Part shown: positions 3,001 through 58,540 of the stretch, piece by piece
Position numbering within the stretch: position 1 is the stretch's first letter
How the letters are laid out: every line of letters starts with the position of its first letter
Assembly (NCBI GenBank): GCA_965645245.1
Contig: OZ287081.1
Span: 248,001 to 312,000, forward strand
Source: Massalongia carnosa
Taxonomy: Eukaryota
Length of the DNA: 64,000 nt
Reading direction: 5' to 3'
The notes under the pieces: model-generated
Seen by the model: only the letters and a program-made list of their open reading frames with translations
Told to the model about the DNA's origin: nothing
Database searches by the model: none
Translations under genes and position numbers: made by a program

Positions 3001-3994
3001 CGATCTCGTACAAGGACGCAGTGAAGATTTCGTTCTTTCGATCCTTCATCAGGGTGGAAAATGGCGCGGCTCCTATCATACAGATTTTCATGGGCAAGGC
3101 GCTGGACTTCTTAAGTTCTGGGACGAGACTCGGAGGCTGAGAGTGTTCAGTGTACTTGGTGATTTTCGGGGGTTCAAGACGTGAACTCGGGACTCGGATC
3201 ATGGGCTCGGGATGTTCAATAAACTCGATATGTTCAATAAACTCGGTGGGTTTCAAGAATTCAGGATTCGCGTGAGAGACCTTGTTCTCACGGATTTCAA
3301 GAGGGTCAAGACGCACTGAGGAAGCAGACTCCGGGGGAGGAGACTCTTCGGAAAGATCAGAAAGGCCAGGAATAACAAGAGGGACGTGTTTATTCTCTAA
3401 ACACTCCAGACGACAATACGAGGACGAGAAGGTCAGAGTATTTCGAGACCAGCTGACGAAAGGGTCGTGAATTTGAAGCCATTTGACTCCCAGGACTACC
3501 GGATAGTGACCCAACTGGGTCACAAGGAATGAGCCGTGCTCGTGATGCCCGTTGACGCTCATCTTCAACTTGGCCAGGTGTGTGAGCATACCAGCCGCGG
3601 CTGGTCGGCCGTCCACAACTTCGAGAACGCGAGGGCGGACAAGGGGGGTGAGAGGCAGGGAATTTCTTTGCGCGAAGGACGAATCAATGAATGCATAGCC
3701 AGAAGCGCCGCAATCTATTAATGCATGTGTGTGTAAAACGCGATTTTCTACAGAGAGTTCTATGGATACGACGAAATGTCTACCATCTAACGAGTCTTCT
3801 GATATGGAAAAAGCCGAAATTGACACAGGAAATCCTTCCGTCGGTCTTCGAGAGCGACTTAGCTCGAAGACACAGCGTTTTCCGTCGACTCCGCAAGGGT
3901 AGACTCGTTGAGTCGTGACGGCTTGGGTTTCCCCCCTCGTGCCAGTTTGGGACAGTTGGCCGCAAAGTGCCCGGACTCCCCGCAGTAACGGCAC
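1..3994 (-). pseudogene. pol: pol of element A (PR-RT-RH-IN-chromo), disrupted
   Basis: ORF 2453..3994 holds protease and RT N-terminus; remaining domains continue in other frames. Confidence 0.85.
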
Positions 3995-5069
3995 AGCCCC
4001 TCGTTCATACGACGAGTTACTTCCGCCGAGGATAACTTGCCTCGAGAGAAGGCGGAGAGGTCCATGGCGTCTGGAGGCGAGGCGGGAGCGGCAGCGGCGG
4101 GGGAGACGGTTCGGGGTAGGGCAACCCCCCCAGACGGAGGGTTACGAAGTGTGGTCCCCGCATCAGAAGAAGATGGGGCGGACCGGGGCGAGTAGGGCTT
4201 CCGGAACAGGGCATTGACATTGCGCTGGCGAGTATCTAGCCGTTGCAGTAACGAGATCAGCTCGTTGAGGTCCTCCGGGACCAGCTGCGTTACCATTAGC
4301 TGTTAAAGTTCTTCGCTGATACCTTGTTGCAGGGCAGCGCGTTGAGCTTCCTCATCAAAATTGGTGTCCGGGGCGATGCGTTGGAAATCTGCTAAGTACA
4401 CATGGAACTCTCGATTTGCCTGACGAAGGGCACGCAGCTCACGCTGCGCGGTGGCCTTTCGGTCAGGGTCCCCGAACGCACGTTCCAACAGCACCAGGAG
4501 GGACGGTACATCCGGCAGAGAGATTTCGTGCTGTGACTTGACATACGGTTGTACCTGGGAGAGCGCACGCCCCTCCAATCGGCTGATAGCATAGATGAGT
4601 CCTGATTTTTCTCCGGTGAAGCGGTCTTTATTGACGAAAAGTTTCAAGTGCAGTTGGGTTGTCCAGGAACGTAAATCCTCCTTCTTTCCCGAGAACTTGG
4701 GAATATCCGGGAGTCTCTCCGATCGGGAGTCTGCGTGGCTGATGGGGGATGGGTGTCCGCGAAGGCTGATGATCAAGGCTCGAGCCGCGATCAGCTCGTC
4801 ATTGGAGTCACGCAGCTGACGGCGGATTTGATCACGCTCCGATTCTAAAGACTCGCACTGACTCGTTTTTATGTCCAGGGAGCTCGAGAGGGACGTGATC
4901 TGATTGGCAGCTTGAATAGAAAAATTGTACCACTCGTGGGGAAATTTCTGGATCGAGTGGCTCCAAGAGGGGCAAGAGAGGCTTCCTTTTTGAAGTCCGG
5001 AGGGGGAAGATTGAAGGTCTGGCCTTCGGAGAGAGAGGTAGATGCCTCGGCGGAGAAGCTGGAGGCCAT
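3859..5069 (-). pseudogene. gag: gag of element A (probable frameshift near 4920, in-frame TAA at 4303-4305)
   Basis: ORFs 4303..5163 and 3859..4296 are in frame across a TAA; capsid-like motif (FSGKKEDLRSW, LRQ...YLADF) and CCHC knuckle. Confidence 0.8.
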
Positions 5070-5131
5070 CCTTTTCGGGAGAAGGACCTGGGGACGAAGG
5101 ACCACTTGAGGTATGGGGGAGGTGTTCGTAA

Positions 5132-5417
5132 TGTAACGGGTGGGCAATAGAAGGCCTACTCAAGTGGTGGTGATGATGGTCTTGATGGCTAGCTAATAGC
5201 TATGCTAAATAAACAAGACGAACACAAAGAAGAAAGCAGCAATTGCTGCAGAGATTTTCTTATAACTCCTTGATCCCTTTACTAACCTTGATGAGGTTAG
5301 CTTCCCGCTAAACCCAATGCGCTACCTCCCGCGACGCTAAATGTCGGTATCGCTTAGCAATCTTAGCAACCTTCTTGTGACTACCTTTCCTAGATTATCC
5401 TTATTCGCACCATGACA
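5132..5417 (-). repeat. Putative 5' LTR of Ty3 element A
   Basis: TG...CA bounded segment (tgtaac...atgaca) directly upstream of gag. The partner LTR is not in the window, so boundaries are inferred. Confidence 0.5.
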
Positions 5418-5579: not shown

Positions 5580-5752
5580 TGTCAGGGTCCTGAGGTCACC
5601 TGACATCAGACTAGCATCGATTAGGTAATGTGCCGAGGAACCGACTTTTCAGGGGTTATATAGAACTCCGCCCGAGTAAAGCTTTTAGACTTCGTCTGAA
5701 GATTTTGGTGTAGAACTAGGCTATTGAAATTGAACTCGTTTTATCCCTCACA
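5580..5752 (+). repeat. 5' LTR of element B
   Basis: tgtcaggg...ccctcaca; matches 13627-13799 except the first base. Confidence 0.95.
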
Positions 5753-6523
5753 CAATCTTCAGACCTACAATCAGAATCATTAGGCTAATCAGAAAACATG
5801 AACTCATTAGAATCATCCAGCAGAGATGTCGCTCCCTCGGGGCCGGCCTTCAACACTAGAGCTCGCTCCATGTCGCGACAATCGACACAGAGCATACCAG
5901 GCGAATATGAACCCGCCGACGAAGAGGTGGGAAATGACACTGTTTTGCCGACAAACAAAGACAAAGGCAGGGAACCGAAGATCGAGGCCCCGACCTCAGA
6001 ACCGAAAATCGACATAAGCAATTATACCATTTATCGAAGTCTGACGGAAAGCAATCCGTCGAAATCAGCTATGATCATCAAGGTGGCCAATCGAGAAGAG
6101 TTGAGAAGGGCCCTCGTCCTAAAAGGAGACGGCGACATATGGTACACTGTTCTAGCCGGCACGCTCCTACAACATGAGGTCTTGATCGAGAAATATCAGG
6201 ACTTGAAAAAAAGAAACAAAGATCTAAAAGGTCTACAGGCAGAATGGACCCGAATGATAAAGAGCTGGGATCACGAGAGACTAGTATCTGAGGAGGATAT
6301 CGCGGCTGAAAAATTGGAGACTCAGAAGGTCAAAGCGGAAAACTCGGACCTCATTCGTGAAATATCAGAGATGAAACGTCTAGCTCGCGAAGCTACTCAG
6401 ACGTCGACCTCATCGACTGGTCAAACTGAAGATCAATCCGCCGTCGCTGCCCCCTTAAGCAATTATCGACCCAAAGGCACCAACCCGAAGGAGGCCCTCG
6501 ACGGTTCCAACTCAGACGCCTAT

Positions 6524-8691
6524 CCCTCTCGCTGTCATTCTAGCACCCCCCCCCCCAAGCTAAACCATTGTTGGTTAGAAAGCGCTAAACCTTAAACTTT
6601 TGACCAATCAATGTTATTCCTATTCACAAGAAGTTGTACGGAGTATCAGATACCTATTTACTCGTCCCCTATCATATGAATAGCTTCCCAACAGCTGGCT
6701 TTCTTACAGCAGGGCCTGATTGGATTACATCCTCCACAAGCCCATATAGTCTGAGCACCCCTTCGCCTTCTTTAACGCCCATCGACACTTATTTCAGCCA
6801 GTGGCTCTCCCTTCCGCTTTGAAGGTCGTTTTTTCTCGGCGTTACATTGCACACATCTTTTTCTGCCTTCAAGACGAACGTAATGATGAATGGGAGATGG
6901 TACTAAAGCATCAATCGTGGTATTGATGCTTATCTTTGATGAGCCGGGCCTGATGCCCGCTTGATTTGATATCAGTTCAAGAGCAATCCGACGAAGAAAT
7001 TCAGAACGAGTAAATTTTATCTCCTTGGAATCGAAAGAGTTCAGCGAGTAAAGTTTATAGGCATTCAATCCGGCTGCATCTAAAATAAAAATGAACAAAG
7101 GCCACCAGTAACGATCCGTTCGACGATTGTATGAGTAAATCGCTCGTTGCTGAGCGTTTCCATCCGATCCCCCCATATGAAGATTATATTCTTTGATTGG
7201 GGCTGGTATCGGTAATCCTAAGGGCCGTTGAACCTCTTGATTGAGCAAGGGAATGGAGTGAGCCAGAGTTGATGGGAAATACGATACAATAGGTTGAAGA
7301 GAGGTCTCGGGAATTCCATATCTCTTGTGCGGATTTATATAGTGCATTTCGTACAAGTCCTGAGGAGAATGACCGGTGGTCATATACTGCACACCATTAT
7401 TATCCACCCAGCCCATACAAAGCACCTTATCGTCGACCACCATATGGGCCTGAAGACCCCAGTCTTTTCCTTTTGAAGTGACGTCCCGTATGGCCAACAA
7501 TTCTTCTGGAAAGCCCGAGCCCTTTTTAGCAGTTCCACTGGCAGCTATTCCGATTGATCGAAGTGCCTTGAATAATTTCGTACTAGTAAAGAAATTATCA
7601 CAGAAAAGATGATAATTCAGTGAGGATGGAAGTTCTTTACATAACTGAATCACTAGCAAAGCACTAGGAGTTAGTTTATCTTTTGGCAAAAATCCCAATT
7701 GTCTGACTGTTTTCAATTCACTTATTCTGCTACTCTTCGAGGCAAACATAAATGACAACAGATAATTATCCTGACAGAGACTGTAGATTTTAAATCCTTT
7801 ATGGGCACTTTTTGTAGTAATCTGCAAGGTATGTCGAGAACGGCCCTTGAATAACACCAGCTGTTCATCTATAGATATCATACTTCCTGGTCTGCAATGT
7901 TTCAATGAAGTCTTTCGGAAATCAGTAGCCAACGGTTCCAGTTTCTTCCACCAATCAGGTCCTTGACCAAGTCCGATAGGCTCAGTCTGTCCATTATTGA
8001 TTTTCAAAAATCGTTTGATTTGTTGAAATCGACCAAGCGACATCGCGGACAGAATAGGCATGATAACTGGTTTGTCAGGACGTTGATTCCAATAATCCTC
8101 TGTAGCAGGTAGATGATCGAGTCCCATAAGAATTAATATGCCCAAAAAAACCTCAATTTCCGAGTCAGTAGTGTCAGTCCAAACCCGATGATTGTTCTCC
8201 TTCTCCTTTTCCATGTAGTTATTTGCCTTGATATTGGTATGATTTGCGATGATACGACAATGCTGCCTTGTTATAAATAACCGAAATAATCCCAAAGGAT
8301 TTCGAGAATCGTTTTCAACGAGCGGAACAAAAGGCCTGTTTTCAACCCGAATGGGGGTATATTTTGAGGAAATAGGGGGAAGGTCGATTAAAATATCCCG
8401 AACACTTCTTTTGCGATTTATTTTATGTTGCTTCGCTGAAATGGGAGATTTGTCTGATACACTCGGGATTTCTTCTTCATTGAGCGTCATACTTATAATA
8501 TCAATTCCGAAGCTAGAAGAATAGTAATTTATGTGATTTATTTTGATTGAATGACCGAATAGTATTCTTTGAAAAGTAAACAAACGCGCAAACACTCTAG
8601 AGAAAACTAATGTTCTGATGACTCATCGGTGCGGAAGCTAGTCCAATATAGATTAGCTTGGGAGGGGGGTGCTAGAATGACAGCGAGAGGG
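6524..8691 (-). mobile_element. piggyBac-like DNA transposon 1
   Basis: About 39-bp TIRs ccctctcgctgtcattctagcacccc...caagctaa; flanks TAT|CCC ... GGG|ATA; internal transposase. Confidence 0.93.
6772..8490 (-). CDS. piggyBac-family (DDE_Tnp_1_7-like) transposase; C-terminal Cys-rich domain cut off by a frameshift (continues to about 6670 as WACGGCNPIRPCCKKASCW)
   Basis: SIDEQ, CDNFFTS, GTAK and YNLHMGGSD motifs; ATG at 8490 chosen as the likely start. Confidence 0.88.
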   Translation of the reverse strand: MTLNEEEIPSVSDKSPISAKQHKINRKRSVRDILIDLPPISSKYTPIRVENRPFVPLVENDSRNPLGLFRLFITRQHCRIIANHTNIKANNYMEKEKENNHRVWTDTTDSEIEVFLGILILMGLDHLPATEDYWNQRPDKPVIMPILSAMSLGRFQQIKRFLKINNGQTEPIGLGQGPDWWKKLEPLATDFRKTSLKHCRPGSMISIDEQLVLFKGRSRHTLQITTKSAHKGFKIYSLCQDNYLLSFMFASKSSRISELKTVRQLGFLPKDKLTPSALLVIQLCKELPSSLNYHLFCDNFFTSTKLFKALRSIGIAASGTAKKGSGFPEELLAIRDVTSKGKDWGLQAHMVVDDKVLCMGWVDNNGVQYMTTGHSPQDLYEMHYINPHKRYGIPETSLQPIVSYFPSTLAHSIPLLNQEVQRPLGLPIPAPIKEYNLHMGGSDGNAQQRAIYSYNRRTDRYWWPLFIFILDAAGLNAYKLYSLNSFDSKEIKFTRSEFLRRIALELISNQAGIRPGSSKISINTTIDALVPSPIHHYVRLEGRKRCVQCNAEKKRPSKRKGEPLAEISVDGR

Positions 8692-9556
8692 ATAGTGCAT
8701 GGGCGTTTACGGTGGAAAGAAAAATCAGAACCGACTCCCCAATGTACACTAGTGAGGAGTTGAAAATCGACTACGCCTTATCGCAGATGAAGGATCCCAT
8801 TTTCGACGCCATACACACCTGGGTAGTGGATGCCGGTCCCACTCTCTCTTTGAATACGTTCTTAAAGGAAATTGAGAGCTATCTCGGGATAGCATATTTG
8901 ACAAAGGACGCGAAGAAGGAATTGAAAGAAATAAGCATGAACAAAGATGAAACGGTGACTGAATACTATCATCGAATGTTCAAACTCTGGCAACGTGCAA
9001 AAACCCCCGCGGATGAGAGAATTGAGACGTTCAAGGACACCCTGCGGCCGAACATCGCGCTGTCTCTATTGGGACGGGACTTCATCAGTCTAGAAACCCT
9101 CTTGCATGAAGCCAGGAAAATCGAACAGGGAAGAAAGGAGATGAATCAGAAGTACGCGAAGTCGGAATCTCAGAAGCCCGCGAAAACGACGACTTCTCCT
9201 TCTTCTTCCGTCGGTCGTGGTTTAAACAAAACCACGACCGCCACCTCCAGTACCTCGATCACAGTCAAACCAAAAGCGACTACGACCAACTCCGCCATCT
9301 CCGCCAACCCGAACTCGAAATTCGGACAGGTCTCGACCAAACCGGAAGGATGGGTAGGAGCTTGGTACGAGGGGACGCTTCACCCGCCCAAGTTGGAGGA
9401 CGGGGAACGAGAGACTCTGTCACGACAGGGCCGATGTTGGTCGTGCAGAGGATCGGGGCATAGGGGCCGAGACCCCTGTTGCATTAGGCAAGCAGTGAAT
9501 CTCAGTAGAGTCGCCATTCGAGAAGACTCATCCGAGTCCGAGGACTCGGAAAAAGA

Positions 9557-12500
9557 ATGATTCCTGATGATAGTCGCCATCAGGAATGTCGAGAAGTTTC
9601 ATTAAGGGTTGTTAGAGCATCTGTTCTTTCTGTCGATCATCTCGTTCCGGGCAAGCATCTTTTATTTAGATGTAGTATAGCCTCTAATGAAAATCAGTTG
9701 ATGATCGATAACGGAAGTGAAGCTCAATTTCTTCATGAATCCTTTGCGCGCAAAAGAAAACTAGAGACCATTAGACTAAAAAAAAGAGACAGGGTCAGAC
9801 TGGAACTTGGGGATGGAAAAGTCCATCAAATCATTGATAAGGCCGTTATCGTTCCCGTCAGAATCGGAGATCATGAGGAAAAGTTATTCTGCTATCTGGC
9901 CGACATAGGTAATCATACCTTGATCATCGGTGATGGATGGCTGCAGGAGCATAACCCTCACATTGATTGGGTTGAACGCACCATGACGTTCTCCAATCGG
10001 TGCGTCAGTAAGGGATGCGCACCTCGATCTCATTCAGTCTCAAAATTTGAATCCACAATCTTGGAGAAGGAAACGACTGCCTCAGCAAAGAACGAGGCCT
10101 TTGAAAATTTCGATATTCAGTCCCTCACCCCGAAGCGATTTATGAAACTTCTTCGAAGATCGGGTCATCAGACTTACTGTTTCTATCCGAGGGAAAAGCT
10201 CAACAAGAAGTTAGATAGGTACGAGAAGAAGCTTCTGACTGCTTCAAGTATCAACGCAGTCACCAGCGACGATCATGAGAAGTTCATGAAAGACAAAGTC
10301 GAATATACTCTGGAAGAATTGAAAAAACGAGTACCCGAGGCCTATCATGGCGAGATTGAAGTCTTCATGAGGGCTAAGGCAGACGAGTTGGCACCTCATC
10401 GAAAAGAGGATCACGAAATCAATTTGATGCCCGGGATCGAGCCCCCGTTCATCAAGAATTATCGGCCCATGTCCGAACAGGAATTGACCGCGGTAAGAAA
10501 ATATCTAGATGAGCACTTAGCAAAAGGGTTATTCGTCCGAGCTCGTCAAAGGCGGCCGCGCCGGTACTATTGGTCAGGAAACCAGGCGGGGGTCTTCGCT
10601 TTTGCGTAGATTATCGAGATCTGAATAATATCACGGAGAAAAGTCGATACCCCATTCCATTGATCAGCGAGACATTGGCGAAACTCGCCAAAGCAAAGTG
10701 GTTTACTAAATTGGACGTCATTCATGCATTCAATAGGATGAGGATTAAAGAGGGACAAGAGTGGCTCATGGCGTTCAATACTCGATACGGTCAATTTGAA
10801 TATCTTGTGATGCCCTTCGGACTATGCAACGCTCCATCAACATTTCAGAGCTATATCAATAACTCCCTGCGAGAATACTTAGATTATTTCGTCACCGCCT
10901 ATCTGGACGACGTACTGGTGTTCAGTGAAACAGAAACGGAGCACATCGAGCAGGTACTGAAGGTACTTCGTCGTCTGAAAGAAAGAGGACTTCAACTGGA
11001 CATAGACAAGTGTGAATTCTCTGTCTCCGAAGTCAAGTACCTCGGAATGTTCGTGGGGGTAAATGGCGTTAGAATGGACCCAGAAAAGGTGACGGCCATA
11101 CTAGAATGGAAGACGCCCGCGTCAGTAAAAGAGGTGCAGTCCTTTCTTGGATTCGCTAACTTCTATCGTCGCTTCATTGAGCGATTCTCCGAAAAGGTGA
11201 AGTGTCTGACCGAGCTAACCCGCGGAGAGCAATATGTCACGAAAGGCGGAAAGAGACGCACCAAGTATCAAGACTTCGTGTGGACCACTGAATGTCAGCA
11301 AGCTTTCGAAGACATGAAGATTTCTTTTACCTCTGCGCCGATTCTTGCTCATTACGACCCAAGGCTAGAGACCTGGGTGGAGACAGACGCATCTGACTTC
11401 GTAGTATCGGGGATACTCTCTCAGATGCATGAAGGCGTTCTGAAACCCGTGGCTTATTTCTCGAAGAAGATGAGCCCCGCCGAATGCAATTATGAGATCT
11501 ACGATAAAGAACTCCTAGCCATCGTAGAAAGTTTTGTCATCTGGAGACCGGAGCTAGCGGGAGTGGAGCAATCAACAAAGGTCTACTCAGATCATAAGAA
11601 TCTGGAGACCTTCATGACTTTGAAACAACTAAATCGCCGTCAAGTGCGTTGGGCTGAGATGCTGGCGGAATATAATTTTCGCATTATGTATAGACCAGGC
11701 AAGCAAGGGGGCAAACCGGACGCCCTCACCAGAAGAGAGCAAGATCTGCCGATGGACGCGGAGGATGATCGCACCAGATATCAATATCAGGTGCTGCTAA
11801 AAGAAAATCAGCTGGACGATGAAGTGAAACAGGACCTGAAGCTGTACGTGACAACCAGATCCATGGCCAATCGAGAACGGGTTGAAGACAACATTACTAC
11901 TGACTCATCCGATCAAATCAGGGATGAGGAAGTAGAGGACTTGACGGTAGAGGAGCTCACAATCAATTCGAATGATGATTCGGATGCAGAAAAGCCTGAT
12001 GAATTATTAGAAAATCTTTTAGCGGAGGCATATCAAGAAGACGCAATGATTCAGGAAGTCATGAAGGCTAAGTTGGAAAATCTGAAGAAATTGCCCGATA
12101 AAATTCTAAGCAACGGGCTGAGACTGGCGATGGGTGACTTGGAAGTCCGTCACGAAAGACTATACTACAAAACACGCCTCTTCATTCCGAATTTCGACAA
12201 GCTGAAGCTGCGTCTTTTATCGGATCATCATAATCCCCCGATGCAAGGACACCCCGGGTATCGAGGCATGTATGCCAAAATGCTGGAGAACTATTTCTGG
12301 ATGTCCATGAAGGATGATTGTCGAAGATACGCTACTAACTGCTCTACATGCCGAAGGTCCAAGGCGTACAACGATCAGAAACAGGGACTATTAGCCCCAC
12401 TACCCATACCTCAAAGAAAATGGACAGACTTATCTCTGGACTTTGTAGTCAAACTGCCCAAATGTCACAGACGGGGCCGGACGTACGAAAATATCTTGGT

Positions 12501-13626
12501 TATCGTGGACAGATTGACCAAACGTAGGTTGTACGAACCTATGGTGGATATAGGCACGAAGGACGTACTAGAAGTCCTCAAACGTCGGGTCTTTTCAACA
12601 TACGGCTTGCCAAACTCCATCGTCCACGATCGCGGGACGCAATTGACAGCCCATCTGTGGAAGCGAATTTGTCAGCGATTTGGAGTCAAATCGAAACCGT
12701 CCTCCGCGCATCATCCAGAAACAGATGGTCAAACCGAAAATGCGAATAAGGTTATGAAGAACTACCTGAGAGCATACGTCAGACATGCTCAAGACGACTG
12801 GGTGGACTACTTACCAGATGCCGAATTTGCAGTCAATAATCATACGAACGCTTCAACCGGAATGTCCCCCTTCTTCGCTGATCACGGTTATCACCCTCGT
12901 AGTGGCTCGGAGCCGCCTCAGCCTTTTGACTCAAATGTCACCGGACGCGCGGAACTGATTTCGGCAGACAAAATAACCGCCCGACAAGAAGCCATGACCA
13001 AATGGCTTATCGAGCACCTAACCTGGGCACAGGCAGATCAGATGAGATATGCCAATGAGTCGCGGGCCCCACATCCAGACTACAAGATAGGAGACATGGT
13101 ATATGTCAACACCAAAGATTTCTCCGTCGACAAGCAGAGTCGCTCCCTGAGTTCCAAAAACGCGGGGCCATGGAAAATCATCCGAAACATAGATAACAAG
13201 GCCTATGAATTGGAAATTCCCGAACACTTGAAAAGAGTGGGGCTCACACCCATATTTCATCCATGGAAACTTCATCTGGCTCCTACGAACCCATTCCCCG
13301 GTCAACTTATTGAACCGGGTCCCCCGATACTGATTCAAGAAGACGCCGAATCCAGTCCTCATGAAGAATATGAAGTCCTCGAAATCGTCGACTGCCGTGA
13401 AACTAAGAAATACGGCACTCAGTATAAAGCAACCTATATCGGCTCATGGGATGACTGGAACGCAAACCCACCTTGGCAGCCATGGACTGATTTCATTCGC
13501 GCCAAAGAAGAAATCAGAAAATTTCATACAGACAATAAAGGAAAACCCAACGCCCCAAAGGATGTCCTATTCATGAATAACAGTCAACCATCGACGTCCG
13601 GAGCCGCCGTCTCAGAGGAGGGGTAG
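9557..13626 (+). pseudogene. pol: pol of element B (PR-RT-RH-IN-chromo), one frameshift near 10530
   Basis: MIDNGS protease, YLDD RT, TDAS RNase H, HHCC plus DDE integrase, chromodomain-like tail; ORFs 9557..10609 and 10570..13626. Confidence 0.93.
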
Positions 13627-13799
13627 GGTCAGGGTCCTGAGGTCACCTGACATCAGACTAGCATCGATTAGGTAATGTGCCGAGGAACCGACTTTTCAGG
13701 GGTTATATAGAACTCCGCCCGAGTAAAGCTTTTAGACTTCGTCTGAAGATTTTGGTGTAGAACTAGGCTATTGAAATTGAACTCGTTTTATCCCTCACA
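13627..13799 (+). repeat. 3' LTR of element B
   Basis: Direct repeat of 5580-5752; starts GG instead of TG. Confidence 0.95.
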
Positions 13800-13877
13800 A
13801 CCACTCTCTATTCGTACATTCATCACGAATCCATATAGTAGTCACGCTGTTAGATTTGACCCCTTACATTTCTCTTT

Positions 13878-13935: not shown

Positions 13936-15841
13936 CTTATTCAAGTTTCATATCTAGTCATATCTGGATAAGTGAGCGAGTATCCCTTCGTCTGGCAATT
14001 TGGTAGCCACCTTAAATAGGCTTAGTGAGATACCGTAGGGCTGAGTCGCGAACTTCAAAACATTCTCCCCTTTTTTGTAAATAAGAAGGTAAACATCAGT
14101 TGAAAATTATTAAAACATCTACACTTTGTTTAGAATAATCATGAGAGGCATTGACATAGAAGTTCCTGACCAATCAGACGCTTTGCCCCCCTCAATTCTG
14201 AAAGAACAGGCCAAAAAGAATAAACCCAGCGTACAAAGCATAATTGACTCCATGCCCCCTCCGTCATCAAATTATTGTCCAATTTCGATCCCATTTCGAA
14301 ACCACAGCCGGACGAGACGTTGCGCTTGATAAATCAGACTCCTTTCAGTTTATTCTGCCTCTTCTTTAGCTTTGAAATGCTTGAAATCATAGCTAAAAAC
14401 ACCAATCTTAAAGCGAAAAAGAAGTATGCCCTAAACGACATCAAGAGACGTCAATGGCATGACACCTCTTCTTCTGAAGTAGGAGCTTTTCTGGGAATTC
14501 TGTTATATATGGGGTATACACTGATGCCACGTCTTACTGACTATTGGAACACGTCTCCTAAATTTGCCATACATGACATGGTGATTCAAGCCATGAGTCT
14601 TCGAAGATGGGAGCAACTCAAGCGATTTTTGAAGATATCCAACCCCGACGAAGATGAGATCATTGATACTCGAGGCCCTGATTGGTGGAAAAAGCTGGAA
14701 CCATTGGCCACAGACTTTCGAAAAGCATCAAAGAAATACTGGATTCCTGGAAGTCATGTGTCAGTTGACGAGCAATTGATTTTATTCAGGGGTAGGAGCT
14801 GCCATACTATGCAAATAGCCACCAAGGCGGCTGGTGTAGGCTTCAAAATCTATAGTTTATGTCAGGAAAATTATCTTATTTACCTCCAAGGTGAGTAGAA
14901 AAGGCCTCAATTTGCATCGTACTAATTGCAAGACAGGTGTCCAAAATTAGTGAGTTAAAAACGCCTGGACAATTGAAATTTCCGACAACCAAATGGGATT
15001 TGTCTCCTTCCTCCCTAGTCGTCATTCAACTGGCTCGAAGTTTACCGTCTGATGAAGGCTTGAAATACGTCATCTTTCTGGACAACTTCTTCACAAATAC
15101 GAAGCTATTCAAAGCTCTGAAAACCATTGGAATTGGTGCCTGTGGGACGGCTAAGTCAGGATGCGGTTTTCCTGTTGATCTTCTACGTCTGAGGGTTGCA
15201 GCCACCAAGAATAAGGACTGGGGAAAGAAGGCATTGATGACGGTACCTGCAAATAAAAGTAAAAAATCAAACATTGATGACGGGGACATTCTGTGTATGG
15301 CATGGGTGGATTTAAACACCGTGCAATTCATGACCACGGTTCATACAATTGAGGATTTGAAGACTTCTTTCTACAAGAATTCCCGTCGACGTCACGGAAT
15401 TCCTGCAAATTCTAGAGTCATCGTTGATGATGAAGAAGAAAAGCTTCCATTTCCCATGCCCATCGTGGAATATAACCAGCACATGGGCGGGTCAGATGGG
15501 AATGCTCAGCAAAGAGCATATTATTCACCTCAAAGATCTGATCGTCGCTACTAGTGGTCAATTTTCATCTTTCTTCTGGATGCAGCCGTTCTAAATGCCT
15601 TCAAATTGTGGAGAATTCTGTATCCGAATTCAACACTCAGCCATTTGGACTTTCAAAAAGAAATAGTAAATGCCCTACTATCCAATCAAGCCGGTGCCCT
15701 ACGGAAACGTCCGACAGATGTCATAGTTACTACTAATCAAGACGTTAATAAAGACGTCGAGTCAACTTGCAAATGGGAGCATTTGAATAAGAAGGACTAT
15801 TGTTTGGCCCGCAAAAGGCAAGTGCCAAGACTCAAACGACG

Positions 15842-16218
15842 TGTAAGACGTATGCTTCTACTCAGAGGGCGTGTTGGTCACGTGAATGGGGTGTCTCAAT
15901 AATGTATGTTATTGATCTATGCCCTTAGAATAAGGTGGGCATCGACCTCTTTATGCTACAGACGTGTCTCCCCCTAAGACTCCCTTATCGGATAGCCCCC
16001 AGCTATCTGATTGGTCCAAATGGCTCCCGGCCCCTTTGGGCGGTTAGTGCCATCCTACATGGGTTTCCAGCCGTCCCCCTCGCCAGCCGTCCCCCTGAGA
16101 CGGCATGTGGCCGACAGCGGAATCAGCCCATTAGGGTCGGGCCGGGTTCGGCGGCCGAGTCCATGCTGATGCCCCTTTTCCGTATCCTTCTCCGTAGTCT
16201 CTATGGCAGGTCCTGACA
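15842..16218 (-). repeat. 3' LTR of element C
   Basis: tgtaagac...cctgaca; direct repeat of 22311-22687. Confidence 0.95.
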
Positions 16219-16423
16219 TTATCCTCCCCCTAGGGCTCATGTCGCAGGAGGCTTCGACTCACGTGATATCTTCTTTTCGTTGTTGGTGATATTCTTTGTT
16301 GTCGGATGCCCTCGTAATGCCAGTAATTCGAGCATAAATAGCCACTTGGCCTGTCTATCTCCCCTCAGTAGTCCCCAATCCATGACTTACTTTTCATCAG
16401 TTCAATCCTCCAATTTCCCAATT

Positions 16424-16983
16424 ATGTCTGATGTACCACCCCCCGCCGCCAGTCGCCGTCGGCCACCCCGAGCGTACGATGTCCATTTGCCCGACTTTCC
16501 TCCCCCTGCTGCAGCGGTGCGGGTGCCTCCCAAATGGGTCGGCCCCACTTCGGAGGCTTCTCTCTGCCATCGGTGTTCCCAACACAATCCTGAACTTAAT
16601 TTCAACTGCACCACCGATAACCAGCCTCGGGGAAGTGCGCTGATTGCATTCGTCGAAAGGAGGTTTGTCGCCCGATCCCAGTTCCTTTTCGGCGGACGGT
16701 CCTTCGGTTGCTGTAAGAGGCAACCGCCATCAACAACCTGCCGACCCCAAATCGGGCCCGGTTCGCTGCTCTCGCTGCCAAGCATGAGCGATATGTCGCC
16801 CGTGTGGCCATTTGGGAGCGCGCCCGTGCCAAGGCCTTGAAAACCGACAGCGTGGAGGGACTAGATGCCCTTGCGCAGATCCGACGGCAGGCCTTTGAGA
16901 CCGACGCCCTACTTCGGTGGGAAAAGGGGCTTCCCGTGACCGTCCCGGAGGGTGAGGAACAGGTGTCGGATCATGAGGGGTAG
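16424..16983 (+). pseudogene. Antisense accessory gene inside element C, about 186 aa with a Zn2Cys6-like motif (frameshift near 16628, TAA at 16714)
   Basis: MSDVPPP...LCHRCSQHNPELNFNCTTDNQP joined across a -1 shift to GKCADCIRRKEVCRPIP...RLL*EATAINN...SDHEG*. Confidence 0.6.
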
Positions 16984-17083
16984 CTAGCTTTCTTTTTAGC
17001 AATAATCAAAGCTGTTTACTTAACTGTGTCTTAGGTCGATAAGATAAGATTATATTTTTCGCATGCCCGGTATGGGAAAAGAT

Positions 17084-20000
17084 CTATTTGCTTATCTTTC
17101 TTCTCTTTTCCCCGCTTTTCGACGGGTTCGATGGGTATGTCCGATGATAAATCCTAATTAGGTCTTGTGACCCTTCCATGTCTTCCAATGACAGCCATTG
17201 ATTGTCCAAATCCGGATATCCTTTCCATTTGACCAGATATTGCAGTTTCCCGTATCGGATTCGACTGCTCAGTACCTCCTCCACCTCGTATTGCTCCTCG
17301 CCGTCGACCTCGATGGCCGGGGGGAGCTCAGGACCTCTTGCTGAGTCTTCATTGTATGGTTCTAGAAGGTTGACGTGAAAGACGTCGTGGACGCCTTTTA
17401 GTAGCGGCGGTAGTTTCAGACGATACGTTTGCTTTCCTATAACCTTGGTTATCTCATAAGGACCGTAGTATTTATAGTCCAGTTTCTTTGAAGGCCTAGT
17501 AGATGAGATGTTTTTAGCATTAAGTAGTACCTTGTCCTTGACCCGATAGGTCATCGGGGTGTGCTTCTGATTGTAGTACTTAGCTTGATCTGATGATGCT
17601 TTTTGCAGCAGAGTTTCGAGACGACGTCTCTTTTCGAGCGTTTCTATCGCCCTGTCTTTCGCTGCTGGCGTTTCCTTTTCGGTTTTCGTTATTTCCTCCT
17701 CCCACCTCGGTGCCTCTCCGAAAAGGGCCTCGAATGGGGACATTTTCAGTACGCTATGCCGACTGTTGTTGTAGGCGTATTCTGCCATCGGTAGCCAGTA
17801 CACCCAGTCGTCTTGTTGATAATTGACGTAGCAACGAAGGTACTGTTCCAACGTCTGGTTTTGACGTTCCGTTTGCCCGTCGGTCTGGGGGTGAAAGGCC
17901 GTACTGTAATTGAGCCGTACCCTCAGATGATAGCAAAAGTTGGACCAGAAATTCGAGGTGAACAGGCTTCCCCTGTCGGTCACCAGCGAGACCGGCATTC
18001 CAAAGCGGGTGAAGACTTCTTCTACCAGGGCGTCGGCAAGGTTCTCCGCCGTCCAGTCTTTCCTGGCCGCGATGTATCGGGCGTACTTTGTATACCTGTC
18101 AACAATTACTAGTATTGCATCAAAAATAAGGGTGCGGCGGATGCTCGGGGGCAAATCCGTAATGAAATCTAGTGTCCAATTCTGTCTTGGACCCAGAGGT
18201 ACTGGCAAGGATTCTAATTCGCCGAATGGTCTATGCCTGACTGCCTTGACTTGATGACAGCGAGTACAGGTATCAACGTAGTGCTTGACATCAGGGACCA
18301 TTCGGGGCCAGTAGTATTTTCGTTGGAGAAGTTCTGTCGTTCTGAGGGTACCGAAATGCCCTGCGTTTGGATCATCATGATTCCTTTTTAGCAGTTCGTT
18401 TCTCAGCAATCCAGGCGGTATATACCACCTGTTATTTCGACAGAGGATGTCATCTTTGAGATGCCAGAGCCCGTCTTCTTTCTCATCGGCAGGAAGGTCG
18501 TCTCCTGCGACCCCCTCCATTCCCTCGGTGGGCTGCCTCTGACCATCCCTTTCCTGATCCAGCTCTCCCTGCAACGACGATGCGGCGAGGGGCCGTCTTC
18601 GCTTCGCAAGGTGATCAGTCTCTTGAAGAATACGAAGGACGGTGCTGAGTTCCAGGGGGGGCGATGCAAAGGCAGCTTCCGACTCAGTCACGTCTAGGAC
18701 GCGCTGGCTTAATGTGTCCGAGTCCCTCTCGGCCTCGACGAGTCGGAATCCCACAGGCTTGGAGTCAGCCGCGGTCTCGTCTGACTTCGGAGGGGCAGGC
18801 TTTTTGCCCTTTTTCTTCCCCCCCTTGGTCCTTCTCATTGCCGCCTGGATATCAGGATCCGACGCCCGTGCAGCATTCGGGGTGGTATCCATCCCTACGA
18901 CAGCAATTGAGGATTCCGTGCGCGTCTCCGGTGGAGTATTGTTGAAGACGAAGGATTCCTTCGGCCCTTGACCGACTTCATCTGAAGAAACTAATGCGTA
19001 GGCTCTCGTTTGATATACCTCGCTTTCCCCCCCGACGACCCCCTGACCCAGCAGCGTGGCCTCGTCTTGACGATGCAAGCCTGGCCCTGCGTAGTCCGGG
19101 CGTCGCGAGGGTCCATCTGCCGGATTATTCCGACCAGGTCTGTACTCGAGCTGTAGGTCTAGACTGGATAGTCTTTCCCACCAACGCGCTTCGCGTCTAG
19201 ATAGTGTTTTGGTTGTGAAAAAGGTGCGAAGGTTTCCATGATCGGTGAGCACTTTGACGGGGAAGTTTGCCCCTTCAAGATAGTGTCTCCAATTTTTGCA
19301 CGCTTCCACGATTGCTAACATTTCCTTCTCCCCGACCCCATAATTGATTTCTGCAGGGGTCATTTTCCGGGACCAGAAGGCGATCGGGTGCCATTGGCCC
19401 GTTTCTTCGACTAGTTGACTGAGGATTCCTGATAGGGCGAAATCTGACGCATCCGTCTCGAGCTTAATACGCCTTGCAGGATCGAAATGCAGCAACATTG
19501 GGGCGCTAGTGAACGCGATTTTTAACGCCTCAAAAGCCCCCTTTGCCTTGTCCGTCCACACGAACTTCCCCCGGAAACGGCCTTTGTCCCCACCTTTCAG
19601 CAAGGAAGTGATTGGCGCCACTATGCGCGAGAATCCTTTGATGAAGCGTCTATAGAAGTTGGCGAATCCAAGAAAGACTTGAACTTCTCGATGAGATTTC
19701 GGCTCCGGCCATTGCGTCACCGTAAAAATTCGTCCTGGGTCCATGGCGATGCCTTTTCGGGAGAGTATGTAGCCCAGGAAGTCCAGCTCGTACGCGTGGA
19801 AGATGCATTTCGATAACTTTGCGTGTAGTTTCCATTTCCGCAATTGATCCAGAACCCATCGAACGTGGCCCGAATGCTCCTCTTCCGTCTTGGAGAAGAT
19901 GAGGATGTCGTCAAGATATACTACTACGAACTGGTCGAGATTCTCTTTCAACACCTCGTGAATGAACGCTTGAAAGGAGGCGGGGGCATTGACCAGTCCG

Positions 20001-21163
20001 AAGGGCATGACTCTATACTCAAAATGGCCATATCTACATCTGAAGGCCGTCTTCCATTCGTCCCCGGCGGCGATTCGGAGGGTGTTGTATGCGTCCCTCA
20101 AATCCAACTTGGTGTAGATAGCCGACCCGCTGACGATGTCGAACAGCCCCTGGATCAGGGGTAGAGGGTACTTATTCTTAATCGTAGCAGCATTTAGGGC
20201 CCGATAATCGACACAGAGACGTAGACTACCATCTTTCTTCTTGGTGAATAGGACGGGCGCGCCTAGTCGTGAGGTGCTATGGGTAATATACCCTTTTGCC
20301 AGGTTGTCGTCGATGTAGTCTTTTAGGGTTTCTAGTTCGGTGAGGGAGAGGTTATACATGGGCCGGGTCGGGGGTGGTTCGCCTTCCAGATTGATTTTAT
20401 GGTCGTGGGGCCCTCGTTCTGGTAGCACTGAAGCTTTTTCATTGGAGCAGACGTCACTGTAGGATTGATACAGAGGCAGAAGTTTATTGCTAGACGTAGA
20501 GATGGCACCAACTATTGACTCCGACTCCGGGCTCCCACCGAGCACTTCCCGAATGTCTATTAGGAATGCGTCGACGCCCTCGCATTCGCAGATGTCAAAG
20601 ATCTCCTGCTCACTCACCATTGCCACTACTGGGAGATTGATACTTCGATGAGGGGTTTCCTCATCGCCTACAGTGACCCCGGGACGTTCCCCTGGCAGGT
20701 CATCTCGTACTTCACCCTCGATGAGGTGGCTTTCATGGATTATCCTCCTTTCGCGCCAGCCGATGGATGGATTGGCATGACCCAACCAGGGCAAGCCCAG
20801 GATCATGTCCACCCCATACATGTCTGACGCGACGAACGCCTGCTCGGCCACTCGCTCAAGACCATTGTCATCAACAACCCCGACGCGCAGGGCATGATCA
20901 AAATAAGTCTGGAAGGGGGTTCCATCGAGAGTTTTCAACCCAGATGGTGGAGGGGAGCCGGGAGGATCTCGAACACCTACCTCATTTAGCCAGGTTTGAG
21001 CGATAAGGTTCCAAGTTGCTCCGCAGTCGATCATTGCTCGGACACGATGCTGACTGTTGTCGTAATATAGGAAAACCGTTGAGAAGAGGTGGCGGCATGG
21101 GGATTTCCTCATTTGCCGGGCCAATACGACGGAGGCAACGTCTATTGGCCCCGACCTTTTCCC
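17084..21163 (-). CDS. pol: pol of element C (PR-RT-RH-IN-chromodomain), reached by -1 frameshift
   Basis: Uninterrupted frame of 1386 codons with MIDCGA, YLDD, TDAS, HHCC, DDE and chromodomain EQYEVEEVL...YLVKWKGY. Confidence 0.95.
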   Translation of the reverse strand, partial: GKRSGPIDVASVVLARQMRKSPCRHLFSTVFLYYDNSQHRVRAMIDCGATWNLIAQTWLNEVGVRDPPGSPPPSGLKTLDGTPFQTYFDHALRVGVVDDNGLERVAEQAFVASDMYGVDMILGLPWLGHANPSIGWRERRIIHESHLIEGEVRDDLPGERPGVTVGDEETPHRSINLPVVAMVSEQEIFDICECEGVDAFLIDIREVLGGSPESESIVGAISTSSNKLLPLYQSYSDVCSNEKASVLPERGPHDHKINLEGEPPPTRPMYNLSLTELETLKDYIDDNLAKGYITHSTSRLGAPVLFTKKKDGSLRLCVDYRALNAATIKNKYPLPLIQGLFDIVSGSAIYTKLDLRDAYNTLRIAAGDEWKTAFRCRYGHFEYRVMPFGLVNAPASFQAFIHEVLKENLDQFVVVYLDDILIFSKTEEEHSGHVRWVLDQLRKWKLHAKLSKCIFHAYELDFLGYILSRKGIAMDPGRIFTVTQWPEPKSHREVQVFLGFANFYRRFIKGFSRIVAPITSLLKGGDKGRFRGKFVWTDKAKGAFEALKIAFTSAPMLLHFDPARRIKLETDASDFALSGILSQLVEETGQWHPIAFWSRKMTPAEINYGVGEKEMLAIVEACKNWRHYLEGANFPVKVLTDHGNLRTFFTTKTLSRREARWWERLSSLDLQLEYRPGRNNPADGPSRRPDYAGPGLHRQDEATLLGQGVVGGESEVYQTRAYALVSSDEVGQGPKESFVFNNTPPETRTESSIAVVGMDTTPNAARASDPDIQAAMRRTKGGKKKGKKPAPPKSDETAADSKPVGFRLVEAERDSDTLSQRVLDVTESEAAFASPPLELSTVLRILQETDHLAKRRRPLAASSLQGELDQERDGQRQPTEGMEGVAGDDLPADEKEDGLWHLKDDILCRNNRWYIPPGLLRNELLKRNHDDPNAGHFGTLRTTELLQRKYYWPRMVPDVKHYVDTCTRCHQVKAVRHRPFGELESLPVPLGPRQNWTLDFITDLPPSIRRTLIFDAILVIVDRYTKYARYIAARKDWTAENLADALVEEVFTRFGMPVSLVTDRGSLFTSNFWSNFCYHLRVRLNYSTAFHPQTDGQTERQNQTLEQYLRCYVNYQQDDWVYWLPMAEYAYNNSRHSVLKMSPFEALFGEAPRWEEEITKTEKETPAAKDRAIETLEKRRRLETLLQKASSDQAKYYNQKHTPMTYRVKDKVLLNAKNISSTRPSKKLDYKYYGPYEITKVIGKQTYRLKLPPLLKGVHDVFHVNLLEPYNEDSARGPELPPAIEVDGEEQYEVEEVLSSRIRYGKLQYLVKWKGYPDLDNQWLSLEDMEGSQDLIRIYHRTYPSNPSKSGEKRRKISK

Positions 21164-22245
21164 GGCCGGCGGGACGATCCCCGCGGCGACGGCCGGGACC
21201 GACATTCGAATTGAAGGTGCCCCATTTTCCCGCAGTTCCAGCAATCCTTATCCGACCGATTTCCTTTTGGTCTCGTAGGGGGCGGGGCTTCTTGATCTTG
21301 CTGATCTTCCTGATCATCCAGCTTTCTTTTGTTTGATTGGTGGTTCGGATTAATCACGGGTGCCTGTGGAGCGTCAGCGGGTCCATCTTCTTCAGGTTTG
21401 GGGGTTGAGGAAGATTGATTGTTTCGATTTTGATTCCGGCTTTTATTGAAAGTCTTCTTCCATCCATCGGGTTTTGGCTCAACCCTTTCCGCAATCCTCA
21501 CCGCCTCGACCAGTTCCGCCCTGGTCGTCCCCTGACTATCCGCCCGGATCACAGCCGTCTTCAAGTAGTCGTGCACGCTGTGTAGGAGGTTGGAATGCTT
21601 CTGCATTTCCGTGGGGGGTTCGGGGAGTTGAGCTTCTAGGCTTTCCAGATATGTGACAAAATCGGACACGGTCTGCCCCTGGAATTGGCGCAATTTCTTC
21701 AGTTGTCCCCCCAGATCCATCAAGCGTAGATGCTTCGGTTTGAGCTTTTCCTGGAGGAAGTCAGCAAAGATTTTCCAGGTGAGCTCACCTTCCGCCGCCT
21801 TCGTCGTCGCTTCCTTCTCACGGTGCCAATCGTCGGCAGGGGCTCCGGATAGATAGTTCTCGGCGTAGAGGACCTGTGCCGAGGGCGATTCGTATGTGAC
21901 TGGCTTCTGCAGAAAAGTTCTCTTGCAGTCACGTAGGAATGTGTCAAACGCCCGCTGATTGTCGCCGGCGTAGGTCGTCGGGTCTACGGAACGAAGAGAC
22001 CTTTCCAGGGCCAGCGGGTCGACGGGTTTGGTTCGATCCGTGAGAGTGGGGAAGCCGGCGGCCTTTTCCTTCTTCAGGTCCTCCAGCGTTTTGGCTAGGT
22101 GCGCCTGCTTCCGTTCAGCCTCAATGGCCTCAACTTCTCGCTGCATGTCTGCCATGGTGGCGGAAATTAGGGTCTCGTCCGGGTTAGGTGTCGGGTTCGC
22201 CCCGGAAGCGGTGGACGAAGACATTTGCGATCTAGTTAATACCAT
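21142..22245 (-). CDS. gag: gag of element C
   Basis: 367 aa with CWNCGKMGHLQFEC knuckle. Confidence 0.92.
   Translation of the reverse strand: MVLTRSQMSSSTASGANPTPNPDETLISATMADMQREVEAIEAERKQAHLAKTLEDLKKEKAAGFPTLTDRTKPVDPLALERSLRSVDPTTYAGDNQRAFDTFLRDCKRTFLQKPVTYESPSAQVLYAENYLSGAPADDWHREKEATTKAAEGELTWKIFADFLQEKLKPKHLRLMDLGGQLKKLRQFQGQTVSDFVTYLESLEAQLPEPPTEMQKHSNLLHSVHDYLKTAVIRADSQGTTRAELVEAVRIAERVEPKPDGWKKTFNKSRNQNRNNQSSSTPKPEEDGPADAPQAPVINPNHQSNKRKLDDQEDQQDQEAPPPTRPKGNRSDKDCWNCGKMGHLQFECRSRPSPRGSSRRPGKGRGQ
21157..21163 (-). promoter_or_regulatory. -1 ribosomal frameshift slippery heptamer G_GGA_AAA
   Basis: XXXYYYZ heptamer in gag frame four codons before the gag stop; pol lies in the -1 frame. 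Confidence 0.7.
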
Positions 22246-22310
22246 AGGTTGAAATGTCGAGGTAATGAGGAATGACCAACGGGCTCCCTAGAAGGTTGGA
22301 TAGATCAAAG

Positions 22311-22687
22311 TGTAAGACGTATGCTTCTACTCAGAGGGCGTGTTGGTCACGTGAATGGGGTGTCTCAATAATGTATGTTATTGATCTATGCCCTTAGAAT
22401 AAGGTGGGCATCGACCTCTTTATGCTACAGACGTGTCTCCCCCTAAGACTCCCTTATCGGATAGCCCCCAGCTATCTGATTGGTCCAAATGGCTCCCGGC
22501 CCCTTTGGGCGGTTAGTGCCATCCGACATGGGTTTCCAGCCGTCCCCCTCGCCAGCCGTCCCCCTGAGACGGCATGTGGCCGACAGCGGAATCAGCCCAT
22601 TAGGGTCAGGCCGGGTTCGGCGGCCGAGTCCATGCTGATGCCCCTTTTCCGTATCCTTCTCCGTAGTCTCTATGGCAGGTCCTGACA
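22311..22687 (-). repeat. 5' LTR of element C
   Basis: Direct repeat of 15842-16218. Confidence 0.95.
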
Positions 22688-24289
22688 CGACGCCGACCAC
22701 TTGCGGAAATTGATGAAAATTGCACCAAAAGACGACGTGCAAGTCAGACCAGATGGCAATGTAAGAGCTGTGGACCATGTTGCAAAAAGGAGGCATGTTG
22801 GGAAATTTTACATAGATCATTAGGGGTGATTGAGGTGTTGTACCCATTATCGTTGAAAAGGGAAAATCTGATTGGCCAGATTAAAGTTATTAGTCATTAC
22901 CCGGAGACGGCGCGTGTAAAATTGAATATTACCTAAATGGCTGCCAAATTGCCAGACGAAGGGATATGTTCACTCACAACTGCATCTTTTGCTTGTTTTT
23001 CTTTCTGCATCTTTGATATTTTTTGTGAATAGAAACCAAGTAGATACTGTCAATTTCTATCCTTATTGAACCGTCACATAATCTAATATAACTAGTGATT
23101 CGTGTTATATTTTGTAATACGGATGGCGCTAGAGGGATACGTGATCGCCTATGGCGGTTGCGGGATTAACTAGCGTGGACCATGCCGTAGTACGAAGTCG
23201 CATAAGCCGTCGAGGCTGACACACTGCCATCTTGCCCCGAAACTTCGGAGTTATTGTTATCACGTTCTTGACTACTTACAGATCAAACACCTGTCGAGGC
23301 CGTGGTGGTAGATTGCCATGGAGTGTAAGGCGGACTCCTGTGGAGACGCCAAGGAACTCTATATGGGATCTACTGGCCTACTCGGAGCTACTGGATCTCT
23401 TGATGGTTCAAGAGAGGTAGCAGGAGGCACGGCTCGCTGGACGCAGCTTGAGCTAGGCTCCCCGGTGTAAACTTCAGCTTCAACCTTTATTACTACGTTG
23501 GTAGTGATGTCGGCTGAATGAACCTACATGACCTCGTTGTCTAGACCTTGTGTCTAGAGGCAGGTCCGCAGTGTAGCGAGGTATTCAGTCGGAGGTAACC
23601 TTCCATCACTAGGTAGTGGTGACGGCGAAAAGAAGCTACATAGCCTGAGGCATGTAGTGAGGGATCTAGCCGGGGGTAGAATTGTTCTACCTTGCAAGGG
23701 AAGATCTAGAAGGCTGCTCGAGGCTGACTAGATGATCCAGCGAACGCCGAGTTCGTGGATGGATCCTGAGGGATGGTTGGATGTAATGCGATAAAGTCAG
23801 ATGTGGATTGCAAGGCTGTAATGCTCGCAAGACTCCCAAGGCTTGCAAGGCTCCTAAGGTTCCAAGGCTCCCAAGGCTATAGGCTTGGGGTGAGTAGGAT
23901 AAATATCAGAACGAATCTTGTAGTATTCGTTAGCAATTAGTCTTTATTCTATGAACAACCTACGTTTGGGTCTCGGACGAGATCTCTTGGTCTAAGCACT
24001 TCCACATCCATTAGTTCTTTGGATCACGTATACTCTCGGAGACTAGCACGTAGTAGCTATCTTCCTCCTCTCACGCTGAGCATTTCCCCTTTCGAGATCA
24101 GTGTCGCTCGTGATAAGCTTACTGGTCTCGTAGCCCATTACATATTTACAGTAGGTCATGCTGTCTCGATCACGCATTTCCGAACCGTTACACATTCGAT
24201 TCTAACAATTTTTATCTTAAATTTATCTCAAATGGAAAACTCCTTTCTGATTGTGCAACGTATTTGAAATGAGATAATCAATATTGAAT

Positions 24290-58483: not shown

Positions 58484-58540
58484 CCCCCCCCCCAAAATTT
58501 CGAAAAACAGTCACAAAACAACAACAAAACATCTTCATTT

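Follow-up and report, generated by a model that had tools for sequence, protein, structure and literature searches.

A deep piggyBac-superfamily clade that probably inserts at TATA and duplicates two bases

TTAA targeting and a 4-bp duplication are treated as defining traits of the piggyBac superfamily of DNA transposons; the available part of a 2017 survey by Bouallègue et al. gives TTAA sites as a general shared feature and mentions a 50-bp inverted end in a fungus (PMC5381638). In Tuber indicum, Belfiori et al. (2013) described Ti_tr1, an element with a PF13843 transposase and 52-bp inverted ends; in the available portion of that paper, TTAA duplications were not found, the duplications were taken as TA, and the classification was left "unclear" (PMC3864998). 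Here, we describe two piggyBac-family elements in a 64,000-nucleotide stretch of Massalongia carnosa DNA (contig OZ287081.1, positions 248,001 to 312,000; hereafter the window, whose own numbering is used throughout). Element 1 (6524..8691) and the decayed element 2 (13984..22963) both have CCC...GGG terminal inverted repeats (TIRs), a piggyBac trait, and both are flanked by TAT on the left and ATA on the right. Based on an empty site of element 1 and on related insertions in metagenome contigs, we propose that these elements probably belong to a clade that inserts at TATA.

Element 1 is a 2168-bp piggyBac-family DNA transposon with its transposase on the minus strand. Its junctions read ...gacgcCTAT/CCCTCTCGCTG...CAGCGAGAGGG/ATAGtgca, where slashes mark the limits of the element. 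The left TIR, at 6524..6563 on the plus strand, begins CCCTCTCGCTGTCATTCTAGCA and includes a run of C, and its inverted-end match, the right TIR, occupies 8653..8691 on the minus strand. The first 28 bases of the two ends are identical, and about 40 bases are alike, with two differences in the C-run. Exact matches to the 22-base end are found at two places in the window, 6524 (+) and 8691 (-), and nowhere else, where 0.02 matches are expected by chance. On the plus strand, the left flank TAT lies at 6521..6523 and the right flank ATA at 8692..8694.

Element 1 splits the gag gene of a plus-strand Ty3-type long terminal repeat (LTR) retrotransposon (5580..13799), named Ty3 B in the original prediction, which carries gag, protease, reverse transcriptase, RNase H, and integrase domains. 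Its LTRs, at 5580-5752 and 13627-13799, match by 100% over 172 bp, begin with TG, and finish with CA, and ACCAC is found on both sides of the retrotransposon. To find the uninterrupted state of this host, contigs of four public runs (X2, X5, X6, and X7, of seven listed with positions 5800-9400) were compared with the window over 5800-15800. The rest of the list consisted of X1, labelled as a lichen metagenome with a share of 0.37, X3, and X4, none of which enters the evidence. The first base of the 3' LTR (13627) is G in the window and T in contigs of X2, X5, and X6; this T makes the 3' LTR begin with TG, as does the 5' LTR at 5580, so that the LTRs are identical at 172 of 173 positions. Judging from these LTRs, the insertion of element 1 is recent.

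Contigs of X2, X5, and X6 lack the insert and pass directly from 6521 to 8692, skipping 2170 bases, with two letters that fit on either side of the joint. This joint is carried by one X2 contig with 91 letters on its shorter side, by two X5 contigs with 25 letters, and by a 5765-bp X6 contig that matches 5800-6521 and 8692-13656. X6 has zero depth on 6802-8471, so excision is an unlikely origin for its uninterrupted Ty3 copies. No joint across element 1 was found in X7, but this run contains the element only, without the Ty3, and is uninformative. The uninterrupted host reads GCCTATAGTGCA; from the skip and its two ambiguous letters, the empty site follows as cTATAg, with a gain of 2168 + 2 bases. 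The original prediction had deduced this same empty site from the gag frame and had staked its case on how uninterrupted copies of the host would read; the joints, found in three of the four compared runs, agree with it, as do the gag proteins described below. As a separate observation, one X5 contig carries the right end of element 1 with its ATA (to 8694), 15 other letters, and then cgcctat with the left end (from 6517). It could represent two nearby copies or a rearrangement, and it was not used as evidence.

The reading frame of gag leads to the same site. The left frame, an open reading frame from 5798, closes on a whole codon at 6523 (GCC TAT), and the right frame opens at 8694 (AGT GCA TGG); therefore, gag is rejoined only by removing 2170 bases. 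In the window, the left frame ends ...SNSDAY and the right frame begins SAWAFTVERK. The uninterrupted gag protein P0057 (506 aa, 99% identical, from a cluster of 46) reads ...SNSDAYRAWAFTVERK across the site, while the 72% identical P0058 reads ...NLDAYSPWAFTIEGK. Neither has gained or lost a residue, and the first residue after the site is R in P0057 and S in both the window and P0058. The insertion of element 1 (CCC...GGG, 2168 bp) gained two bases and has AT on both sides, at 6522-6523 and at 8692-8693, the two copies of the gained pair.

These data bear directly on the reading published for Ti_tr1, in which, as far as the available text goes, an element of the form T-CCC...GGG-A is flanked by a TA duplication in the style of Tc1/mariner (PMC3864998). 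The parse TA/TCCC...GGGA/TA can be applied to 59 of the 64 ends of the set described below. Nevertheless, a TA duplication predicts the empty site cTAg and a gain of 2172 bases, whereas cTATAg and a skip of 2170 bases were observed, and the reading is refuted for element 1, as the original prediction had anticipated. It would also place a TAG stop (GCC TAG) and a frameshift in gag, whereas the uninterrupted gags read DAY-S/R-AW. Additionally, a metagenome insertion, L066, has junctions (cA/T...A/Tc) without a TA repeat, and the transposase is a PF13843 protein and not of the Tc1/mariner type. The combination by which Tc1/mariner elements are recognized, a TA duplication with a DDE/D transposase of their own type, was found neither in the protein nor at the empty site, and we regard this reading as very improbable.

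Three other accounts of the element 1 junctions were considered and rejected. The four bases to the left and to the right of the element, CTAT and ATAG, do not form a direct repeat, which makes a 4-bp duplication impossible. If TAT...ATA were part of the element, a skip of 2174 bases would be needed in place of the 2170 observed. A 4-bp stagger with carried-over flaps does not yield the observed product from cTATAg.

The sequence fits both a 2-bp AT duplication at T/AT/A and a duplication-free insertion of T-CCC...GGG-A between TA and TA. The original prediction had left the choice between an AT duplication and none open, and rightly so, as the sequence alone cannot separate them.

Element 2, on the plus strand, has a different 26-bp inverted end and the same junctions, TAT/CCC...GGG/ATA, which had been noticed before and are seen directly as gagcgagTAT/CCCTTCGTCTGG...CCAGACGAAGGG/ATAtgttc. 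Its 20-base end occurs twice in the window, against 0.01 occurrences expected. Its transposase survives as pieces at 14159-15764 and 22697-22813, with 40-54% identity to P0002, a protein on record that is about 99% identical to the transposase of element 1. The gene is frameshifted, other copies having extra bases at 14070, 14298, and 14873, and it is split between about residues 567 and 598 by a nested minus-strand Ty3-type element with a chromodomain (15842..22687), whose LTRs of about 378 bp are 99.5% alike and which is flanked by a 5-bp CGACG duplication. No empty site of element 2 was found in the window, and its right end lies outside the compared stretch of 5800-15800.

To determine whether these junctions are shared by relatives, metagenome contigs were scanned with an alignment of four proteins, which gave 379 pattern matches and 187 relatives. 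The best 80 loci of the 187, with 26-43% identity, were used. Inverted repeats were searched around the transposase genes without taking account of the flanks, and loci representing the same place were merged; L007, L008, L009, and L015, for example, all coincide with the L048 locus and have a damaged left end. Long bracketing repeats were found in 20 distinct metagenome insertions, with AT outside the end in 20 of 20 and TAT...ATA in 19 of 20. The exception is L066, which reads cAT/CCCC...GGGG/ATc. Two more, L043 and L072, came from a motif-guided search of the loci that remained; its requirement for TAT...ATA made this search biased. TAT...ATA-type junctions were found in 24 two-ended insertions, two in the window and 22 in metagenomes.

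Terminal 16-mers were also searched with up to two mismatches and an unconstrained flank, which gave 87 hits. Three of these, at window 48808 (+), window 4430 (-), and L045 5510 (+), were dropped as chance matches, about eight being expected by our own estimate; none of the three has AT at its flank or is located near a transposase end. With same-place duplicates merged, the final set comprises 64 distinct ends, including the four of the window, and was compared with a control of 13,050 CCC sites from the same sequences. AT occupies positions -2 and -1 in 62 of the 64 ends (control, 7.8%), and TAT occupies positions -3 to -1 in 59 (control, 2.2%). TTAA is found at the flank of none of them (control, 0.32%). 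One end of L047 departs from TAT by reading AAT, and the two ends of L066 read CAT and GAT. Position -4 is occupied by G in 22 ends, C in 20, T in 15, and A in only seven, and a 4-bp ATAT duplication was rejected on this count.

The frequencies at single positions are relevant to the duplication-free reading, in which a mobile unit T-CCC...GGG-A, of 2170 bp for element 1, enters between TA and TA by a blunt join; this would resemble the Spy elements of the PIF/Harbinger group. The net gain of 2170 bases fits this reading exactly, and T at -1 in 62 of the 64 ends and A at -2 in 63 are in keeping with it, since the inverted repeat formally runs through T...A. Additionally, according to the available part of one report, there is precedent for cut-and-paste elements without a duplication (PMC4122938). 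However, the TAT flank (60-63 of 64 at its three positions) is steadier than the first three bases of the element (C at +1, +2, and +3 in 61, 55, and 59 of 64, respectively), a pattern that resembles a target. Moreover, a zero stagger is unusual for DDE/DDD transposases and further from the 4-bp piggyBac geometry (PMC7351741) than a 2-bp stagger, and blunt ends would forfeit the complementary overhangs that explain seamless excision. We therefore consider a duplication-free insertion unlikely.

The same set of ends speaks to the proposal that these are ordinary TTAA elements with mutated flanks, or that TAT...ATA belongs to the inverted ends and has no target meaning. In the available part of the 2017 survey, rare non-TTAA flanks of single elements (ATAG, TTAT, ATAT, and ATAA) were ascribed to mutation because the two sides differ (PMC5381638). 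Of the odd flanks given there, all but TTTT look as TAT/...ATA junctions would if taken as four bases. The hallmark TTAA insertion with a 4-bp TTAA duplication is found neither at element 1, where cTATAg is the empty site and the element plus two bases was gained, nor at any of the 64 ends, so that mutation of TTAA flanks is refuted; the original prediction, which had held that TTAA is not used and had pointed to other copies as the check, is upheld. Element 1 is young and its empty site has no TTAA, the 2170-base skip again disagrees with the 2174 bases of an element that includes TAT...ATA, and identical flanks recur at independent sites in families that are 26-43% identical. This proposal is scarcely credible to us. 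The presence of the same junctions in element 2 and in 22 metagenome insertions indicates a property of the clade and not of one copy.

A quick maximum-likelihood tree of 35 rows, from which L013 was excluded as too short and in which there is no canonical TTAA element with known flanks, is consistent with a clade. A branch with an SH-aLRT value of 99 separates all 23 rows with such ends, and eight proteins without DNA context, from four distant proteins, of which one is from a beetle. The TAT-type rows are found in both main sub-branches. A search of the ESM Atlas returned arthropod piggyBac clusters only.

Between the ends of element 1, a long minus-strand reading frame (6772-8595, 607 codons) matches the full PF13843 (DDE_Tnp_1_7) profile, positions 1-349, with an E value of 8.6e-53. 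P0002, which is about 99% identical and 645 residues long, matches PF13843 with an E value of 4.8e-52 and extends past the TAA of the window into a Cys-rich tail; in a tblastn search, its residues 1-645 align with element 1 at 98.9% identity. The transposase gene is assigned to 6661..8595 (-), with 645 codons in intact copies. In the window, a TAA at 6772-6774 removes the last 38 residues, the Cys-rich tail, at a place where P0002 has Lys. Since position 6774 is T, not A, in contigs of X2, X5, and X7, which gives Lys, the stop codon is private to the window copy. Having lost its Cys-rich tail through one stop, the window copy would need intact copies elsewhere in the genome. The P0002 cluster has 56 members, on megabase contigs, and a length of 645 aa is recorded for five of the 15 that are listed; from these records, the family of element 1 is numerous and has intact members. 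The C-run of the left TIR (position 6546) is two bases shorter in some copies, in one contig of X2 and nine contigs of X5.

The only solved structures matched by the element 1 transposase are those of piggyBac (6x67/6x68, with an E value of 5.9e-17 for 6x67) and piggyBat (9c0f). With a profile of four clade members, these matches reach 4.7e-31 (6x67) and 3.6e-31 (9c0f). Based on its profile and structure matches, the transposase belongs to the piggyBac family, in agreement with the assignment first made from the open reading frames. In P0002, the three catalytic aspartates are D243, D333, and D478; they align with the DEQL, DNWFTS, and GGVD motifs of 6x67 and are invariant in the clade alignment. 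Y439 and N440 of piggyBac are retained as Y470 and N471, also invariant in clade alignments, while Y283 and K290 of the omega loop correspond in the alignment to Q258 and H265, and D450 corresponds to A481. In the C-terminal tail, C581, C584, C620, C623, C630, C635, and H640 are invariant in the clade alignment; the tail has no match to Pfam zf-Tnp_2 at E <= 1.

Considering these results together, it is likely that a deep clade of the piggyBac superfamily joins its ends to TATA at T/AT/A with a 2-bp stagger, and that AT is duplicated. The available part of the 2020 cryo-EM paper on piggyBac describes two attacks by the 3'-OH of each end, first on the flank at a distance of four bases and afterwards on the target at positions four bases apart (PMC7351741). 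In that account, the four flank bases are read single-stranded, N440 contacts A at -2, the methyl group of T at -3 sits in a pocket that includes Y439, and Y283 and K290 of the omega-loop hold a 4-base hairpin loop. The flank of the clade, N-T-A-T, has T at -3 and A at -2, as in T-T-A-A. In the mechanism that we favor, the transposase would join the CCC...GGG ends to the two strands of 5'-TATA-3' at T/AT/A, with a 2-bp stagger in place of the canonical 4-bp stagger at /TTAA/, and gap repair would duplicate the central AT to yield TAT/CCC...GGG/ATA. Each monomer would still read a T-A step beside the joined phosphate, and a spacing of 2 bp between the active sites would turn two such steps into TA-TA. 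Seamless excision by way of hairpin intermediates is a piggyBac trait; in the clade, excision would leave complementary 5'-AT overhangs and might thus stay seamless; as AT is a palindrome, the donor flanks could pair and seal without a footprint.

Several points weigh against this mechanism and its extension to the whole clade. The cryo-EM paper, in its available part, ties the 4-bp offset to the architecture of the dimer (PMC7351741), and a 2-bp offset would need a changed dimer. There is one empty site only, and the boundaries of the other insertions are set by analogy with it; a separate BLAST of the flanks found no further empty sites among the 80 metagenome loci. Many of these 80 loci are cut by contig ends, and no ends were recovered from them. 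Two decayed single ends disagree with TAT, as L011 reads TAG/CCC and L041, whose left end is degraded, reads CTA/CCC, and L011 and L012 carry a different, unrelated inverted repeat around the gene. The end-finding procedure had no canonical TTAA element as a control, and no relatives were found in viral contigs (searched with P0039) or in genome contigs (searched with the clade alignment).

Some loci have unusual structures. In L011 (3820-6462) and L012, a piggyBac-type gene with a TAG-flanked left end is located inside a unit with imperfect inverted repeats of about 60 bp starting TAAAGTACTCG; the right piggyBac end is missing, and the arrangement may have arisen by capture or by a nested insertion with a later deletion. 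In L058, L067, and L070-L074, partial transposase fragments (query residues 25-302 or 89-302) are found in long inverted duplications with arms of 46-225 bp, which are not normal element ends.

Based on the other genes of the window and on the literature, the clade is probably fungal. The window genes considered are a DUF7708-NACHT-ankyrin protein, an architecture which we take to be typical of ascomycetes, and copia, MULE, and Tc1 elements. The first of these corresponds to 41040-45484, where DUF7708, NPHP3_N (NACHT-type), and a long ankyrin array resemble an NLR-like gene split across several frames; an amidase, two 2OG-Fe(II) oxygenases, and a CoA-transferase fragment are encoded nearby. 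Other mobile elements in the window are a minus-strand Ty3-type element (1-5163), a MULE transposase (27052-29070), a copia-type element (30056-34547), and a Tc1/mariner-type transposase (58541-59626). Between the host Ty3 LTR and element 2, a 64-bp piece (13873-13936) is repeated at 58421-58484 with 96.9% identity, and contigs of X2 and X7 break at 13869-13873.

Prior descriptions are partial and consist of the truffle element and the flanks of the 2017 survey. Whether such elements had already been described was a question raised by the original prediction, and the answer is divided: the 2013 paper on Ti_tr1 had presented a truffle element that lacks TTAA, although it was read there as having a TA duplication. 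Full-text literature searches, in which Repbase reports and subscription journals were outside the scope, found no paper with an AT duplication or a TATA target for the piggyBac superfamily. In the available text of a 2025 mining study, elements were kept on condition that a TTAACC-like motif lay no more than 50 bp from their ends, and TTAA preference was named as a limit of the tool (PMC13461360). The ends of many relatives (L010, L001, L004, L013, L021, and others) begin CCCTTAA, with an internal TTAA three bases inside the element, and L010 even has TTAACC. Given such an internal TTAA, e.g., CCCTTAACC in L010, TTAA-based pipelines could accept these elements with a wrong boundary.

We lean, with some reserve, toward a broader picture: a probably fungal, deep, and widespread clade in which the active sites have moved from 4 bp to 2 bp apart while the reading of T-A has been kept, with a TATA target, an AT duplication, and seamless excision, and which has been overlooked because mining pipelines demand TTAA. 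A clade with TATA and a 2-base gain would mean that target and stagger can evolve within the piggyBac fold. If the proposal is true, nature would provide a counter-example to the idea that the architecture of piggyBac dictates both TTAA and the 4-bp offset. Structural biology would gain a natural comparison, and genome engineering a set of candidate transposases that recognize another target. Present surveys would miss or mis-annotate such elements, and in annotation, TA-like flanks would be no ground for filing them as Tc1/mariner.

Compared with canonical piggyBac (Trichoplusia ni IFP2 and piggyBat), the clade shares PF13843, the three catalytic Asp residues, the equivalents of Y439 and N440, ends of the CCC...GGG type, and a 4-base A/T palindrome as target, flank position -3 being T and -2 being A. 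It may also share the Cys-rich C-terminal tail. It differs in its target, which is TATA and not TTAA, and in its gain of two bases (AT) and not four; its inverted ends are 26-69 bp long as opposed to 13 bp, its tail differs in lacking the zf-Tnp_2 match, and Y283, K290, and D450 are replaced as described above. With Tc1/mariner elements, the clade would share a 2-bp palindromic duplication from a 2-bp stagger, but the transposases are of unrelated types, the duplication of Tc1/mariner elements is TA and not AT, and a footprint remains where a Tc1/mariner element has been excised. The PiggyMac proteins of ciliates, which are domesticated piggyBac nucleases, cut at TA-bounded ends rather than at TTAA; they are domesticated host genes and not mobile elements, and their 4-base overhangs are centered on TA. 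Spy elements, relatives of PIF/Harbinger, are likewise a lineage that departs from the hallmark duplication of its superfamily and has a precise palindromic insertion point; they belong to another superfamily and, in the available part of their description, gain no target bases, whereas two are gained here if the element is CCC...GGG (PMC4122938). The one direct precedent found is Ti_tr1, an ascomycete PF13843 element with long ends, TA-type flanks, no TTAA, and an insertion polymorphism at a known locus, as reported in the available portion of its description (PMC3864998). Its authors read a TA duplication, whereas the empty site of element 1 gives a gain of AT within TATA.

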